From an uncultured archaeon (GTDB lineage Archaea > Asgardarchaeota > Heimdallarchaeia > Heimdallarchaeales > Heimdallarchaeaceae), in contig CAZJUB010000069.1 in the NCBI GenBank assembly GCA_964549075.1, positions 1 through 14,052 of the forward strand: DNA of 14,052 nucleotides, read 5' to 3'. The translations under genes were made by a program, and so were the position numbers. Of this stretch, positions 4,423 to 13,917 are shown in pieces; position 1 is the first letter of the stretch; each line of letters starts with the position of its first letter. The notes under the pieces were generated by a model. It ran no database searches. It saw nothing but the letters and a program-made list of their open reading frames with translations, and was not told the DNA's origin.

Positions 4423-4467
4423 AAAAAAACTGAAAAAAGAAAGGAAAAAACAATAATGTTTTCCTTT
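4423..4467 (-). terminator. Hairpin plus oligo-U terminator of the surface-protein gene
   Basis: Inverted repeat aaaggaaaa (4440-4448) / ttttccttt (4459-4467) directly after the stop, followed on the minus strand by T6 and T7 runs. Confidence 0.55.
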
Positions 4468-7400
4468 TACTTTTTGTATTTAAATTTCTGTTTTAGACTA
4501 ATAAGAGGAATAATCACACAGAGACCTATCAACAAGAATCCCATAATTGGATTAAATTCTGGAACAACTACATTTACTGTAACAAACACTGTATCTGAGA
4601 CTGAATTCAAAACTAGGTCAGTTACATAAATTGTAAAGTTATAAACTCCTATATCTAAACCATCAACATCCAAAGTGTATTCTATATTGCTCATTCCTGT
4701 TAGATCAAGCGTTAAATATTCCTCACCATCTAGATATATGATCATTTCAGCTAGATTAATATCAGAAACTATCCATGTGATATTATTCTCTGCACTTCCA
4801 TAATCGTAGTTGATATCCTCTGGATGATTGATTTCTGGATTGGTAGTATCGATTGTAAATGTCCTTACTTCACTCCAGTTACTCCAGTTGCTTAAGTCAT
4901 CAGCTGTTCTCACTCGCCAATAATACATCCCATCTTCTAAAACCGGGGTTATATACGATGTAGCACCAGATGTATAATCTACAGCAACTGAACTGAAATC
5001 CCAAACATTGTCCACTTGTACTTGATAGAGCACTCCATCAATAACTGTATCCCACTCCAAATAAATGGTGTTGTCATTTGTTATGTTATCTTCGATAGGG
5101 TCAGTTAATGTTGGTGCAGTCGGACCAGTAGTGTCTACGGTAAAAATCCATATCTCACTCCATTCGCTCCAATTATCCAAAGTATCAGCTGCTCTTACTC
5201 TCCAGTAATATGTTCCATCAGCTAAAGCTGCAATCAATGTGTAAGCATTTGACGCAACTTCTACATCAATTATTAGTGTACCAAATGTATCTGTTGTTGA
5301 AACTTGGAATTGATAACTAGTCGCAGAAGCAACCATTAATACCAATAGTTGAGGAGTGTTGTCACTAGTACTTGTCGCATTAGCAGGACTATTCAAGGTT
5401 GGTTGATCTGGTGCTGTTGTATCAATGGTAAATGACCATATTGTACTCCATGATCCCCAGTTACCTGCTTCATCTCTTGCTCTTACCATCCAATAATAGT
5501 CTCCATCAGCTAAAACTGCCAAATCAAGAAATGTCTTACTTGTTATTTCAGCAATTAATGGTGATGCAAATAGATCATCTGTATCAACTAGAATTTGGTA
5601 CTCAACGGCGTCACTTAGGATATACCATTGTAATTGAGGTGTTGAATCATTTAATGCAACACTGTTTCCTGGAAGATATAGAGGAACTTGGTCAGGTCCA
5701 ACTGTATCAACTGTAAATTGGAAAACTTCGCTCCATCCTCCAATATTACCCGCTTGATCTATAGCTCTTATTCTCCAATAGTATACATCATCGCTTAGAA
5801 TTGATGTGGTATAGTTGGTATTTCCAATTATTAGATCAGTAACCACAATACTGAAACCTGCATCTGTACTTATCTGTATTTCATATTGATATCCACCAGT
5901 GGCAGGATCCCATTCTAAGAAAGGTGTATTATCATTTATTTGTGAGTCATCAGTTGGAGTAGTTGGTATAGCTGTACCAGGAGGTACTGTATCAACTGAG
6001 ATTAACCAAACAGTACTCCACGTTCCTACATTTCCTGCTCTATCTATAGCTCTTACTCTCCACCAATAATCCCCATCTGAAAATACTGTGGTGGGAGTAT
6101 AGTAAGTATTAGTAGAAGTACTCTGTAGAAATATCAAAGAGAAGAAAAGATCACGCGAAATTTGTATCTGATAAGTATAGGCTCCTGATGCAGTGCTCCA
6201 AGTAAAAGTTGGAGTATTGTCGTTAGTATAGGTGAAAGAACCTGGACTGGTTGGATTTGGTGTGCCAGGTGGAACAGTGTCTATATGTAGCTGCCATACT
6301 GAGCTCCAAGATCCCCAATTACCAATATCATCTTGTCCTCTTACTCGCCAATAGTATGTTCCATCTGGTAGTGTTGATGGAATATAATATGTTCCACTAG
6401 TTTGGATATCTTTTTCAGTAGTAGTAAATGATGGTGTTGTAGATACTTGGACCTGATATGTAACAGCTAATGACGTTACATCCCAATCTAAATAAGGTGT
6501 ATTATCGTTAGTGTAAGATCCACTTGAAGGAGATAAAAGTGTAGGCGCTGGAGGTACAGGTTTGTCTATTACATGGTATCTTATTGTACTCCACGGTGAT
6601 TCATTTCCCGCTTGATCTGTAGCTTTAACTCTCCAATAGTATAAACCATTTAATGTATCTGGAGCAGTAAAACTAGTTGCTGATGTAGTCACTACTCTTA
6701 ATAGTGAAGAGAAATCTGAAGTATAAGCAATTTCAAGTCTATACCTATAAGCTCCTGAAGATTCGAGCCAAGAGTAAGTTGGTGTGTAGTCAGTTGAGAT
6801 ACTCCCATGTTGTGGTGTGGATAATGTAACAACATCCGGCGGTACAGTATCTACTGTGAACCCCCATTTCTCACTCCATGGTCCATCGCCATCACTATTG
6901 TATCCTCTCACTCTCCAGTACCAATGTCGGTCATCTAAATGTGGAGAAGTGCATATACTTCCTGTAACAGTTCCATCAACTTCTGGTAATAAGAATAAAG
7001 TAGTAGTCGCAACTTGAACTCTGTAACCAGTAGCTCGTGGTACATCAGTCCAATCTAATATAGGTGTATCGTCATTGATATACTCTTCATTATCTGGAGA
7101 TAATAGTGTTGGAGCCACTGTAGGTGTTAAATCAACTGTAAATGACCAAGTTGCTGTCCAAGTATCCCAAGTGTGGGTAAAGTAATCTTGTTCTCTCACT
7201 CTCCAGTAATATGTATCACTTGGTAAAGATGTTGTAACAGTGTAATATGTGTTCATTCCTGTAAATACATAAACAATTGGCGAACTGAAATCTGAATTGT
7301 CGTCAATCTGGAGGCAGAAATCCATATATTCTCCTCCACCATTCCAATCCATATAGGGTGTCCTGTCAATTATTGTTGCTCCATTTGAAGGTGAAACTAG

Positions 7401-7748
7401 TGTTGCAACAGCGTTGATGCTTATAGAACTTCCTACTGGATCCTCTGCTTTGTTAGACGCTATTTCAATTTCATTTTTTGCTGTATCCTTCCCTGAGTCC
7501 ACAAAATCAACATCTGATTGTTGAATAATGTACTCTTCTTCTCCTCCTCCCTGCGAAAGGTATTCTTGAATATATGTACGAATATCTGTCTGTTGGGAAG
7601 ATTCTGTAGTACCTTCAGAACTACCCATTGTTAGATTGGTAAAAGATGGCACGATAATTATACTAATCAATATTAATGCTAGTACTCGTACTCGAAAAAT
7701 TCTCCCTTTTCCAATGTAACCTCTTCCTGAAAAATCTTTTTTTATCAT
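4467..7748 (-). CDS. Large cell-surface protein: signal/TM segment, nine FN3-like repeats, Ig-like domain, PEF-CTERM-like anchor
   Basis: Basic N-terminus plus hydrophobic VLALILISIIIVP; nine ~95-aa units; final Ig-like unit (P.D..Y..G...NITW...D...DGL..G.YNFTI.V.D); C-terminal VPEF, hydrophobic helix, KQKFKYKK. Confidence 0.9.
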   Translation of the reverse strand: MIKKDFSGRGYIGKGRIFRVRVLALILISIIIVPSFTNLTMGSSEGTTESSQQTDIRTYIQEYLSQGGGEEEYIIQQSDVDFVDSGKDTAKNEIEIASNKAEDPVGSSISINAVATLVSPSNGATIIDRTPYMDWNGGGEYMDFCLQIDDNSDFSSPIVYVFTGMNTYYTVTTSLPSDTYYWRVREQDYFTHTWDTWTATWSFTVDLTPTVAPTLLSPDNEEYINDDTPILDWTDVPRATGYRVQVATTTLFLLPEVDGTVTGSICTSPHLDDRHWYWRVRGYNSDGDGPWSEKWGFTVDTVPPDVVTLSTPQHGSISTDYTPTYSWLESSGAYRYRLEIAYTSDFSSLLRVVTTSATSFTAPDTLNGLYYWRVKATDQAGNESPWSTIRYHVIDKPVPPAPTLLSPSSGSYTNDNTPYLDWDVTSLAVTYQVQVSTTPSFTTTEKDIQTSGTYYIPSTLPDGTYYWRVRGQDDIGNWGSWSSVWQLHIDTVPPGTPNPTSPGSFTYTNDNTPTFTWSTASGAYTYQIQISRDLFFSLIFLQSTSTNTYYTPTTVFSDGDYWWRVRAIDRAGNVGTWSTVWLISVDTVPPGTAIPTTPTDDSQINDNTPFLEWDPATGGYQYEIQISTDAGFSIVVTDLIIGNTNYTTSILSDDVYYWRIRAIDQAGNIGGWSEVFQFTVDTVGPDQVPLYLPGNSVALNDSTPQLQWYILSDAVEYQILVDTDDLFASPLIAEITSKTFLDLAVLADGDYYWMVRARDEAGNWGSWSTIWSFTIDTTAPDQPTLNSPANATSTSDNTPQLLVLMVASATSYQFQVSTTDTFGTLIIDVEVASNAYTLIAALADGTYYWRVRAADTLDNWSEWSEIWIFTVDTTGPTAPTLTDPIEDNITNDNTIYLEWDTVIDGVLYQVQVDNVWDFSSVAVDYTSGATSYITPVLEDGMYYWRVRTADDLSNWSNWSEVRTFTIDTTNPEINHPEDINYDYGSAENNITWIVSDINLAEMIIYLDGEEYLTLDLTGMSNIEYTLDVDGLDIGVYNFTIYVTDLVLNSVSDTVFVTVNVVVPEFNPIMGFLLIGLCVIIPLISLKQKFKYKK
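4836..7406 (-). repeat. Nine tandem ~285-nt (~95-aa) FN3-like domain repeats, diverged at the DNA level
   Basis: Consensus P.L.SP......D.TP.L.W......Y.(V/I)Q.....F...........L.DG.YYWRVRA.D..GN...WS..W.F.(V/I)DT..P recurs nine times in 857 aa. Confidence 0.9.
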
Positions 7749-10784: not shown

Positions 10785-10832
10785 TTTAACAAATAAAGAG
10801 AAAAGAAGAAACTGATTTTTTTATTTGGTGAC

Positions 10833-10840
10833 TTTTATAA
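10833..10840 (+). promoter_or_regulatory. TATA box of the zinc-ribbon membrane protein gene
   Basis: TTTTATAA ends 26 nt before ATG 10867, the spacing expected for a leaderless archaeal transcript. Confidence 0.5.
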
Positions 10841-10866
10841 GTGTCTCAAACACACTTCAAACAGAA

Positions 10867-11268
10867 ATGATTTCTAATAGGCAAACCAATATTATCAAAG
10901 GTATTTCAGCAGGATTAATTCTTTTACTAGGTCTAGGATTGTTTTTTGCGTTTCAAAGAGGTCTTTTCGGAAATTCTTTTCCTTGGATACTGATAACTAT
11001 CATAGGTGGTGTAGTTGTTTTAATTCTATCTGGTATAATGATGATCCCAAGAGCAAGGATAAACAAACTTTCTAGAAGTCATGAAGTACGAACTGATAAA
11101 GATTATAGGATCTATCAACATCGACTGAATGAGATAGAGAAAGATTTTCAGCCTTCAGAAAAATACAGTAAAAAGATAGGGCAGAAAGTTCGATTTTGTG
11201 ATTACTGTGGAGTCAAACTTGAAAGTAATCTTGCTTTTTGTCCAAATTGCGGTCAGAAACTGGATTGA
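10867..11268 (+). CDS. Two-TM membrane protein with C-terminal zinc ribbon
   Basis: Two hydrophobic helices, then CDYCG-x9-CPNCG. I prefer ATG 10867 to TTG 10825 because of the TATA position. Confidence 0.85.
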   Translation: MISNRQTNIIKGISAGLILLLGLGLFFAFQRGLFGNSFPWILITIIGGVVVLILSGIMMIPRARINKLSRSHEVRTDKDYRIYQHRLNEIEKDFQPSEKYSKKIGQKVRFCDYCGVKLESNLAFCPNCGQKLD

Positions 11269-11520: not shown

Positions 11521-11766
11521 ATGTCAAATAGAAATAGACAAAATAGTAATAGAAATAGTAATCGATCTTTTAGTAATAATCGATCAAATAATAGAGGCCG
11601 ATATGGTGGAAATAGATCAAGTTATGGTCAGAGAAAACCTGCAGAAATGCATACAGTAACTTGCTCAAAATGCGGAAAAGAAACAGAAGTTCCTTTCAAA
11701 CCTGATGGATCAAGACCAGTATATTGCAAAGAATGTTATCAACAAAATAAACCACGAAGATATTAA
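11521..11766 (+). CDS. CxxC-x17-CxxC domain protein with N/R/S/G-rich low-complexity N-terminus
   Basis: CSKCGKETEVPFKPDGSRPVYCKEC fits the CxxC-x17-CxxC family pattern including VPF.P...RPVYC. Confidence 0.92.
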   Translation: MSNRNRQNSNRNSNRSFSNNRSNNRGRYGGNRSSYGQRKPAEMHTVTCSKCGKETEVPFKPDGSRPVYCKECYQQNKPRRY

Positions 11767-12412: not shown

Positions 12413-12443
12413 AATTAAAAGATTTTAAATGAGCCTAATCTCA

Positions 12444-12460
12444 TTCTTTTTTCTTTTTTT
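12444..12460 (+). terminator. Oligo-T terminator tract
   Basis: ttcttttttcttttttt about 30 nt after stop 12412. Confidence 0.5.
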
Positions 12461-12662
12461 ATATTAGTAATAGATTATTGTCTGACCAGTTTCTAGGCAG
12501 CCAGATTTATTATTCTAGTTCTAGCATTGGAATCTCTCAAGTTTTTCTTATCCCATTTTTAAGTTAATTTGATGAATTTTGCTGGTTTTCATTAGCTTTT
12601 TTGACTTTCTATAAGCTCGCTTTTATACATATTGCTTGCTTACTATTACTATCTAAACACTA

Positions 12663-12696
12663 CTATAGATACTTTTAATAGTTTTCTAATTAATTA
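12663..12696 (+). promoter_or_regulatory. Duplicated promoter block, copy 1
   Basis: ctatagatacttttaatagttttctaattaatta is 32/34 identical to 13153-13186 and contains TTTTAATA about 35 nt before ATG 12715. Confidence 0.75.
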
Positions 12697-12714
12697 AGTA
12701 TACAGTTGATAATA

Positions 12715-12975
12715 ATGGCTGAATCAGGTGCTGATGTTTGTGAAATTTGTGGATATACAACGAATAGTCATCTAGTCCACACTGCAGAAGGGCATATTTA
12801 TTGTTCGAAGCATTTTCTGCTCCATGTTTTAAATGATGAGATAGAAGAAGAGAAAATTAAACTGGAAGAAGAAAAGGTTAGATTAGAGGAAGAAAAGATC
12901 AAGCTTGAGGAAGAAAAACTTAAGTTAGAAGAAGAAAAACTTCGAGTGGAACGAGAAAAGAAACACCACAAATAG
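12715..12975 (+). CDS. Small CxxC-x17-CxxH zinc-finger protein with acidic heptad-repeat tail (paralogue A, 86 aa)
   Basis: CEICG...HLVH...YCSKH followed by (EEEKxxL)n. In-frame TTG at 12706 is an alternative start. A paralogue lies downstream. Confidence 0.85.
   Translation: MAESGADVCEICGYTTNSHLVHTAEGHIYCSKHFLLHVLNDEIEEEKIKLEEEKVRLEEEKIKLEEEKLKLEEEKLRVEREKKHHK
12844..12960 (+). repeat. Imperfect 21-nt coding tandem repeat, about 5.5 copies
   Basis: Encodes EEEKIKL, EEEKVRL, EEEKIKL, EEEKLKL, EEEKLRV, EREK, with synonymous differences between copies. Confidence 0.9.
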
Positions 12976-13152
12976 ACAAAATATGGAATTGGAATACAAA
13001 GAAGAACAGCGCAGTAGCGCATTTACCAACCTCTCCTTTTAAAGAGCTAACCTCTCGGATTTTTAAAAGCTCAATTACAACTTTTTTATATTTGATATGT
13101 ATAATGTTGATTTTATTACTCATTTTTGAAAATTATATATATAGGAACTAAG

Positions 13153-13186
13153 CTATAGATAGTTTTAATAATTTTCTAATTAATTA
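13153..13186 (+). promoter_or_regulatory. Duplicated promoter block, copy 2
   Basis: ctatagatagttttaataattttctaattaatta, 490 nt after copy 1, with TTTTAATA about 32 nt before ATG 13202. Confidence 0.75.
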
Positions 13187-13201
13187 GTTTTTTGTTTAAC
13201 T

Positions 13202-13378
13202 ATGTTTGTTGAAGATTGTGCTGAGGTTTGTGAAATTTGTGGATCTACAGCGTACAGACATCTGATTCATACAGCAGATGAAGAGTGCTATTTTACAAGT
13301 CATTATCTCATTAATGTTTTACACGAAAATGTAGAAAGAGATATTACCACGCTTGAGGAAGAAAAATATCACCATTAA
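13202..13378 (+). CDS. 58-aa zinc-finger-like microprotein (paralogue B; absent from the ORF track)
   Basis: Hand translation: MFVEDCAEVCEICGSTAYRHLIHTADEECYFTSHYLINVLHENVERDITTLEEEKYHH*. Aligns without gaps to paralogue A at 24/49 identities. Confidence 0.8.
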   Translation: MFVEDCAEVCEICGSTAYRHLIHTADEECYFTSHYLINVLHENVERDITTLEEEKYHH

Positions 13379-13478
13379 ACAAAAAATCTGCTGAAAATTG
13401 TAATATCTTTTTATTTTAAAGAATCATTATAAGAGCAGTTTGAGAAAAATTTTTATGACCTTTTCATAATTTTGATTC

Positions 13479-13751
13479 ATGGCTGTACCCGATGAAAAGA
13501 GAAAATTTAAGATATTATTGAGTTTTAGCCTCTCTTTTGCTATTTTAGGTGTATTATGCTTCAGTCTTTATACCATCCTTGAACCTTTTATAGCAGAAAT
13601 ACTCTCGATTTTACATAGAAACACTATTTATGCTCAGTATATTGTCCTTGGAGTTGGAGCAGGTTTAGTATTAATAGGTATTATAATAGGTATTTTTGCA
13701 TACAGAGAATGGAGAAGAAATAAAAAAACAATATACAACACCTTTGCATAA
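13479..13751 (+). CDS. Small two-TM membrane protein
   Basis: Two hydrophobic helices flanked by basic residues (KRKFK; RRNKK); TTTTTATG about 21 nt upstream. Confidence 0.75.
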   Translation: MAVPDEKRKFKILLSFSLSFAILGVLCFSLYTILEPFIAEILSILHRNTIYAQYIVLGVGAGLVLIGIIIGIFAYREWRRNKKTIYNTFA

Positions 13752-13873
13752 TCTTCCTATTGATCACAAATATGTTTTTGATTCCTATAAGTATCTGTAT
13801 TTATCTATACTTATCTGACTTCAGCTATTTTAATAACATTTCACTCATGTTTTCACCCCAACAATTATATTAG

Positions 13874-13917
13874 ATGAATATTTGATTATGAATAATTATT
13901 CATTGGAATTACTTCAT
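13874..13917. promoter_or_regulatory. Putative operator: perfect 16-bp palindrome with symmetric outer half-sites
   Basis: ATGAATAATTATTCAT at 13888-13903, plus ATGAA at 13874-13878 and TTCAT at 13913-13917, equidistant from the same dyad. Confidence 0.55.

Follow-up and report, generated by a model that had tools for sequence, protein, structure and literature searches.

A tandem duplication of a predicted zinc-finger microprotein gene, together with its promoter, in an uncultured member of the Heimdallarchaeaceae

The stretch of DNA analysed in the current study (the window) is the entire 14,052-nt contig CAZJUB010000069.1 of an uncultured archaeon of the family Heimdallarchaeaceae (assembly GCA_964549075.1; 3.23 Mb, 217 contigs, 89.7% complete, 32.3% G+C). 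It carries two small genes, here called A and B, each of which is preceded by a 34-nt promoter-like block and encodes a small protein with a predicted zinc-finger core. The features of the locus are as follows.

12663–12696, forward strand: block A, the putative promoter of gene A, with ATAGATA (12665–12671), a TATA-like TTTAATA (12674–12680) and the palindrome TAATTAATTA (12687–12696)
12715–12975, forward strand: gene A, 86 aa from ATG; predicted zinc-finger core (residues 1–43), then a charged heptad helix; library entry P0037
12839–12961, forward strand: 21-nt tandem repeat array coding for the heptad tail of A (repeat finding and Tandem Repeats Finder, TRF)
13060–13064 and 13082–13087, forward strand: runs of five and six T between A and B, upstream of the B promoter; the A transcript may end at these candidate archaeal terminators
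13153–13186, forward strand: block B, the putative promoter of gene B, with ATAGATA (13155–13161), TTTAATA (13164–13170) and TAATTAATTA (13177–13186)
13202–13378, forward strand: gene B, 58 aa, of a length typical of the family and the faster-evolving paralogue; library entry P0008

A first-pass annotation, made from the sequence alone, had described two units 490 nt apart, and both the open reading frames (ORFs) and their spacing were borne out. The two blocks are, as it had claimed, duplicates of each other (32/34 nt identical), and the units as a whole align without gaps at the 490-nt offset from about 12600 to 12878. The proteins also align ungapped: where 24/49 identities had been counted earlier, BLASTP gives 25/54 between residues 1–54 of A and 2–55 of B (E 9e-16). 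A and B are true paralogues, and across the assembly the gene family consists of these two copies only. Co-regulation of the pair, which had also been proposed, is plausible, since true paralogues with duplicated promoters are involved. Other statements needed correction. The two proteins do not both end in HH, as A ends in HHK. B was indeed missing from the ORF track, most likely because its frame falls below 60 aa, the default minimum of the ORF list (it appears when the minimum is set to 30 and is absent at the default), but it is not unannotated, P0008 being already present in both public protein libraries.

The arrangement ATAGATA-N2-TTTAATA-N6-TAATTAATTA lies in fixed register 5' of A, of B, of an orthologue, P0038 (on contig L043), and of the family genes in two further genomes (G004 and G020), and its 24 motif positions are invariant in 5/5 genes of this subclade, which come from four genomes. 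In block B the full palindrome is 12 nt long (CTAATTAATTAG, 13176–13187). A search of the 3.23-Mb assembly for the 34-nt block, allowing up to three mismatches, finds these two copies alone, and the motif at up to one mismatch has four matches in 31 genomes of the same taxonomic family, all directly 5' of a gene of the protein family; reversed controls gave none in either search. In other subclades of the family the sequences 5' of the gene differ and lack the palindrome.

An archaeal TATA box is centred about 26–27 nt before the transcription start. From this distance, transcription would start near 12703–12706 for A and near 13193–13195 for B. The leaders would be about 8–12 nt long and the palindrome would lie at about -17 to -8, which is where archaeal repressors commonly sit to prevent recruitment of the polymerase. 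The elements of the block are accordingly described here as a putative transcription factor B recognition element (BRE), TATA box and operator. The T-runs after A, together with one 3' of B (13408–13412, read from the sequence), suggest that the two genes give separate transcripts. Exact copies of TAATTAATTA are under-represented in the genome of the window, with 10 observed and 37 expected from a first-order Markov model of its dinucleotide content; two of the 10 are those of the A and B promoters, and a regulon search found no common promoter context among the other eight.

A profile of 15 sequences of the protein family, searched against 1.84 billion cluster representatives, gave 30 matches at E ≤ 0.001. 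Nine are small proteins (48–67 aa) that cover the profile, and 21 are long proteins, of which three were inspected (P0010, P0013, P0015) and 18 were not. The three are repeat proteins that match in the hairpin part only (..NGKIYCIPH..VLEIDP..) and lack the CxxC knuckle, and their likeness to the family is probably a convergent hairpin motif. The repeats of these three and of P0005 (..APNGKIYC[IV]PH..VLEIDP..) resemble the hairpin and the start of the helix of the family, again without the knuckle. A word-indexed search of 5.8 billion proteins returned 13 clusters of 48–86 aa, in which only A (P0037) exceeds 67 aa. Where members have named sources or contig titles, these read Heimdallarchaeota, Heimdallarchaeaceae or Candidatus Heimdallarchaeum. 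Fifteen of the 31 genomes examined in this taxonomic family have the gene (E ≤ 0.001), and in each of them its frame is uninterrupted by stops; a search with A as query through the remaining families of this order and class yielded nothing better than E 0.017. On the sequences covered, the microprotein family appears to be restricted to the Heimdallarchaeaceae.

As the first-pass annotation had stated, neither protein belongs to a named family by Pfam or by PDB sequence. At E ≤ 10, the Pfam matches of A, B and 13 relatives are scattered and all below threshold (14 families listed); the best, DUF7900 on the tail of A (20.2 bits against a cut-off of 27), is probably compositional. Nothing meaningful came of a profile search of PDB sequences (best match RNase A, E 0.012, with no single stretch above threshold), and B falls only in unnamed clusters of the ESM Atlas, at 0.93. 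No description of the family was found in the literature on small zinc-finger, treble-clef or GATA-type proteins of Asgard archaea or Heimdallarchaeota.

An alignment of 22 sequences shows C9, C12, G13, Y29 and H33 to be invariant and H19, L20, H22, C30 and Y34 to be nearly so. The conserved site has the pattern C-x2-C-G-x16-C-x2-H, i.e. a ligand spacing of C-x2-C-x17-C-x2-H. Most members have 7–12 Cys and His residues per 48–58 aa, the minimum being 6.

Among the 31 genomes only that of the window (G000) has two matches, also with A as query; the other 14 gene-bearing genomes are single-copy. The gene order in G020 is that of the window, namely zf_Tbcl_2, a DUF308 membrane protein, one zinc-finger gene and a 90-aa membrane protein, and the flanking proteins are 71% and 80% identical to their counterparts in the window. 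Since a single copy occupies the same slot in G020 and two copies are found in G000 only, A and B are best described as a lineage-specific tandem duplication of a unit of about 490 nt, comprising the gene and its own promoter. The closest relatives, P0038 (57 aa; single copy, with different neighbours, on a 2-kb contig) and P0007 (59 aa), share an N-terminal xESxADVC extension and a short ...LEEQK-[YF]HK end. Because these relatives are short, the ancestral form must also have been short, as B is, and the tail of A is a later repeat expansion. The earlier view of B as the special form of the pair is thereby reversed: the short form, of 48–67 aa in all other members, is ancestral and A derived.

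The two copies also differ in the site itself. Positions 28–30 read C-Y-C in P0038 and P0007; A has kept C30 and lost C28, and B has kept C28, which many relatives also have, and lost the near-invariant C30, which is replaced by F. The pattern is that of a reciprocal loss of alternative Cys ligands, as read from the alignment. In B the His of the helix is, in addition, shifted from position 37 to position 40. In a tree of 22 rows and 54 columns, for which A was cut to its first 56 residues and in which 12 of 19 inner branches are left open, the branch to B is longer than that to A (0.96 vs 0.52).

A second strain is represented by Logan contigs of runs X7 and X9, which belong to a different study; they cover 12437–13900 at about 98% identity. 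One of these contigs bridges A and B, which excludes misassembly as the origin of the tandem arrangement. Among the 20 runs listed for the locus, none is an RNA run. The differences from the window are distributed as follows.

Upstream intergenic DNA: 5/226
Block A: 1/34, at an N position of the motif
A core: 1/124, synonymous
A tail: six substitutions and a compensating 1-nt deletion and insertion
A–B spacer: 9/177
Block B: 0/34
B coding sequence: 0/177

The scarcity of changes in B is significant when set against the spacer (Fisher, p 0.0035) and against all intergenic DNA (p 0.019). Two changes in the A tail are synonymous and the others are I62V, K63R, E65Q and K82R, with the number of heptads unchanged. 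Between A and B themselves (Nei-Gojobori, 54 codons) the nonsynonymous and synonymous divergences, dN and dS, are 0.36 and 0.94, giving a dN/dS of 0.38. This ratio and the unchanged coding sequence in the second strain uphold the earlier opinion that B is not a decayed copy, and B is intact as a gene and probably maintained.

Translation of A may alternatively begin at a TTG that lies in frame at 12706. The sequence TTG-ATH-ATH-ATG is found 5' of both A (12706–12717) and P0038 (322–333 of its contig), and an alternative start is suggested because the two middle codons differ between them only at synonymous Ile positions. In the second strain, an A>G change at 12711 makes an in-frame ATG within this sequence. 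The same strain has a 7-nt insertion at 12443, an extra TTCTTTT unit in a T/C-rich tract after the DUF308 gene.

Models of the two proteins made with AlphaFold (AF2) have the same topology. That of A (mean predicted local distance difference test score, pLDDT, 86.4) has strands at residues 20–22 and 28–30 and an unbroken helix at 31–85, and that of B (mean pLDDT 73.3) has strands at 21–23 and 29–31 and a helix at 32–56. A knuckle with C9 and C12 is followed by a beta-hairpin and then by the helix, which begins at residue 31 and carries C30 and H33 at its N-terminus. As modelled, the arrangement is that of a treble clef, and the family is filed here as a treble-clef finger. It is not filed with the GATA zinc fingers, a membership that was considered and rejected because the family has no match to the GATA hidden Markov model (HMM) and has His as its fourth ligand, and because A and B are acidic proteins (net charge -7.9 and isoelectric point, pI, 5.4 for A; -10.0 and 4.7 for B; family range -10 to +2.8).

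GATA fingers have the motif C-x2-C-x17/18-C-x2-C, with four Cys ligands, and a basic, DNA-contacting region after the finger. The family shares with them the 2/17/2 ligand spacing and the knuckle-hairpin-helix topology, but its fourth ligand is the invariant His33, B also lacks Cys30, and the region after the finger is acidic (LNDE...) in both A and B. The GATA HMM (PF00320) had no match in the 15 members at E ≤ 10. In the genome of the window the same search finds three places, none of them on the contig studied here; the best (contig C124, 5564–5647, reverse strand; 19.9 bits, E 0.0025, sub-threshold) is a 54-aa open frame unrelated to the A/B locus, and this frame is absent from the ORF list of part of the locus in which it lies.

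Foldseek searches of the PDB place GATA fingers at the top for both models (E 0.64 and 0.70; probability 0.87 and 0.69), with a weak superposition (root-mean-square deviation 1.9–3.1 Å over 34–39 columns) and with RING and LIM fingers next. A VIA-align search of 48,161 chains gives ZAD as the best match (Z 3.9), followed by the Lsr2 dimerisation domain, CsfB, the ClpX zinc-binding domain and GATA1 at 3.2–3.8; the GATA score of 3.2 is tied with those of many other fingers, and all these scores are ties within the range of noise. Across the three fold searches every match is weak, and the best-ranked ones are mostly treble-clef zinc fingers. Fingers of the TRASH/YHS/FCS/L24e type were likewise considered and rejected, none being among the 14 Pfam families listed for the 15 members (E ≤ 10), and L24e is absent from the fold-search rows among the matches listed.

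Passages in four papers describe one-domain zinc-finger micro-proteins of haloarchaea, namely HVO_0758 and other C(P)XCG proteins of Haloferax volcanii and Brz of Halobacterium, as regulators (PMC6562870, PMC10716476, PMC11241148, PMC2253796). As far as those passages go, they resemble the present family in being stand-alone archaeal proteins of under about 70 aa, with one presumed zinc site and individually transcribed. There is no sequence relation to the C(P)XCG proteins, and the present family has one CxxCG and one CxxH (a YCxxH half-site) in place of two C(P)XCG motifs. It also differs in being found in Heimdallarchaeaceae only and in the larger size of A (86 aa).

The tail that distinguishes A is encoded by the 21-nt array, which occurs in no other family member and for which TRF reports a period of 21 and 4.7 copies (12842–12939). 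By expansion of this repeat A has gained about 30 extra residues. The heptad repeat is [IVL][KR]LEEEK, and residues 41–86 are 72% D, E, K or R. The earlier count of about 5.5 heptads agrees with five copies of [IVL][KR][LV]E[ER]EK and a degenerate DEIEEEK, and B does have the single LEEEK that had been reported. The proposal that the tail is a zipper fares less well. A leucine zipper or canonical coiled coil needs hydrophobic residues spaced 3,4 at positions a and d, and was rejected as a candidate: the hydrophobic residues of the tail are spaced 2,5 throughout residues 48–78, so that in any register a hydrophobic residue occupies one of a and d and E or K the other, and the hydrophobic residues form two seams about 154–200 degrees apart. 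Pairs of opposite charge are dense in this 46-aa segment, 15 at i+3 and 16 at i+4, and the tail is modelled as one uninterrupted helix (AF2, pLDDT 96–98). Because of the 2,5 spacing and the 72% charge, the tail resembles an ER/K single alpha-helix and not a leucine zipper, an assignment made from composition and charge-pair counts with no dedicated single-alpha-helix predictor.

Single alpha-helices have been designed from 7-residue AEEEXXX repeats in which X is K or R, according to the part of that report available here (PMC5347031). The tail of A shares with ER/K helices, as parts of two papers portray them (PMC5347031, PMC5812594), a 7-residue EEEK-rich repeat with K or R, the 72% charge and the dense i+3 and i+4 pairs. 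It differs in that each heptad has two aliphatic residues (I/V/L and L), which form two sparse seams on opposite faces, and in its terminal position, known examples usually joining two domains. The tail may be monomeric, or its two aliphatic seams may permit some self-association.

Elsewhere in the window, an 81-aa protein (11521–11766, forward strand) has a strong match to zf_Tbcl_2 (PF23477, E 9.5e-20); R, G, N and S are abundant at the N-terminus of its orthologues. The zf_Tbcl_2 gene lies within about 1–1.3 kb of the gene of the present family in G000, G004 and G020, in differing order. A 147-aa predicted membrane protein (10825–11268, forward strand) ends in a zinc-ribbon (several sub-threshold families, E about 1e-4) and is a further small zinc-site protein near A and B. 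On the reverse strand (4467–7748), a protein of 1,093 aa consists of numerous Ig-like domains (six stretches each of Big_13 and Ig_Rha78A_N) and is probably a surface protein. Scans of the window with Rfam models and for tRNAs found no RNA genes.

The explanation favoured here, with moderate confidence, is that A and B arose in this lineage when the gene for a zinc microprotein specific to the family was duplicated along with its private promoter, that both copies are maintained and co-regulated, and that the acidic core is a protein-contact module, to which A adds a stiff charged helix and B adds no tail. Each gene would be transcribed alone from its own TATA box, and the palindrome would be the operator for a dimeric repressor, by which A and B would be switched together. 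The zinc core would bind protein and not DNA, as A and B are strongly acidic. The tail of A would act as a stiff, highly charged single helix of the ER/K type that adds reach or a second contact surface and is not a dimerising zipper, and B, having no tail, could engage the same target as A but without the contribution of the tail.

A number of observations weigh against this explanation. No fold match is significant (Foldseek E ≥ 0.6; Z ≤ 3.9), and only the conservation of residues points to zinc binding by A and B. The tree leaves it undecided whether A and B are sisters, and A is more similar to P0038 (58%) than it is to B (46%); given this, the duplication may be older, with loss elsewhere. 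The variant-free tract of the second strain (13196–13505) takes in 100 nt of non-coding DNA after B, and the 0/177 of B may reflect a local tract of low diversity or recombination and not selection. With a longer branch and a lower pLDDT than A, and with the near-invariant C30 and H37 both missing, B may bind metal in another way or fail to bind it. Finally, a private palindrome agrees equally well with a DNA-binding product that regulates its own gene and with another repressor.

A different use of the same two genes, to which we assign a small but real probability, is as a long and a short partner: A and B would associate, or compete for one partner, and B would titrate or antagonise A in the manner of dominant-negative microproteins, much as the first-pass annotation had imagined. 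The identical promoter architecture means that A and B are probably made together, the core is conserved in both and the tail is in one copy only, and the nearest analogues with a knuckle and a long helix are ZAD, the ClpX zinc-binding domain and CsfB (Z 3.4–3.9), which are dimerising or inhibitor modules. In known dominant-negative pairs, however, the short form retains the dimerisation part, and here the part that differs between A and B is no canonical dimerisation motif. With 14/15 gene-bearing genomes single-copy, a two-protein module is also not a property of the family. A prediction of the A:B complex, run without controls, gave an ipSAE of 0.01 and a mark of 0.32, values that count on neither side of the question.

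It is unlikely that the proteins are DNA-binding autoregulators, in which a GATA-like 2/17/2 finger binds the TAATTAATTA palindrome of its own promoter as a dimer. Such a role would account for the invariance of the palindrome in 5/5 promoters and for the confinement of the tripartite motif, across 31 genomes, to the family gene, and it draws on the top Foldseek rank of the DNA-binding GATA fingers for both models and on a spacing equal to theirs. It has to be reconciled, on the other hand, with proteins as acidic as A and B, which lack a basic tail, with the failure of the GATA HMM to match at E ≤ 10 and of the fold matches to reach significance, and with the promoters of the other subclades, which differ and have no palindrome.

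Much the same low probability attaches to B being a redundant duplicate on its way to loss, without a function of its own. The loss of C30 and H37, the longest branch of the subclade, the lower pLDDT (73.3 vs 86.4) and the lack of a second copy in any other genome are what such a duplicate might show. Yet its 58-codon frame and its promoter are intact despite a synonymous divergence from A of about 0.9, dN/dS is 0.38, and the strains differ at 0/177 positions in B against 9/177 in the adjoining spacer; moreover, Cys28 and His40, which are present in other members, could replace the lost ligands.

The proposal that the Cys/His-rich core buffers or passes zinc, nickel or copper is more doubtful again. 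It can point to the high Cys and His counts, to the conserved His19, His22 and His37 beyond the four presumed zinc ligands, and to the small membrane proteins nearby (DUF308 and the 90-aa protein, which has a sub-threshold Cation_efflux match at E 0.003), as well as to a transporter of the major facilitator superfamily (MFS) type beside the gene in G004. The extra His residues are not kept throughout the family, however (L017, P0004), synteny varies between genomes, and no metal-related family was matched. Least probable of those considered is that an Asgard-only treble-clef finger binds its own palindrome as an archaeal counterpart or distant relative of the GATA fingers, here with long and short isoforms acting on the same operator.

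The finding does not by itself answer a long-standing question. It defines a small protein family that is without a Pfam model, appears to be restricted to the Heimdallarchaeaceae, and is marked by a clear signature of zinc ligands and by a promoter that is conserved between species. The locus is also a compact case of microprotein diversification, by tandem duplication of a gene with its promoter, reciprocal loss of Cys residues and growth of a charged helix from a 21-nt repeat, and it would represent a small Asgard regulatory unit with a defined candidate operator.

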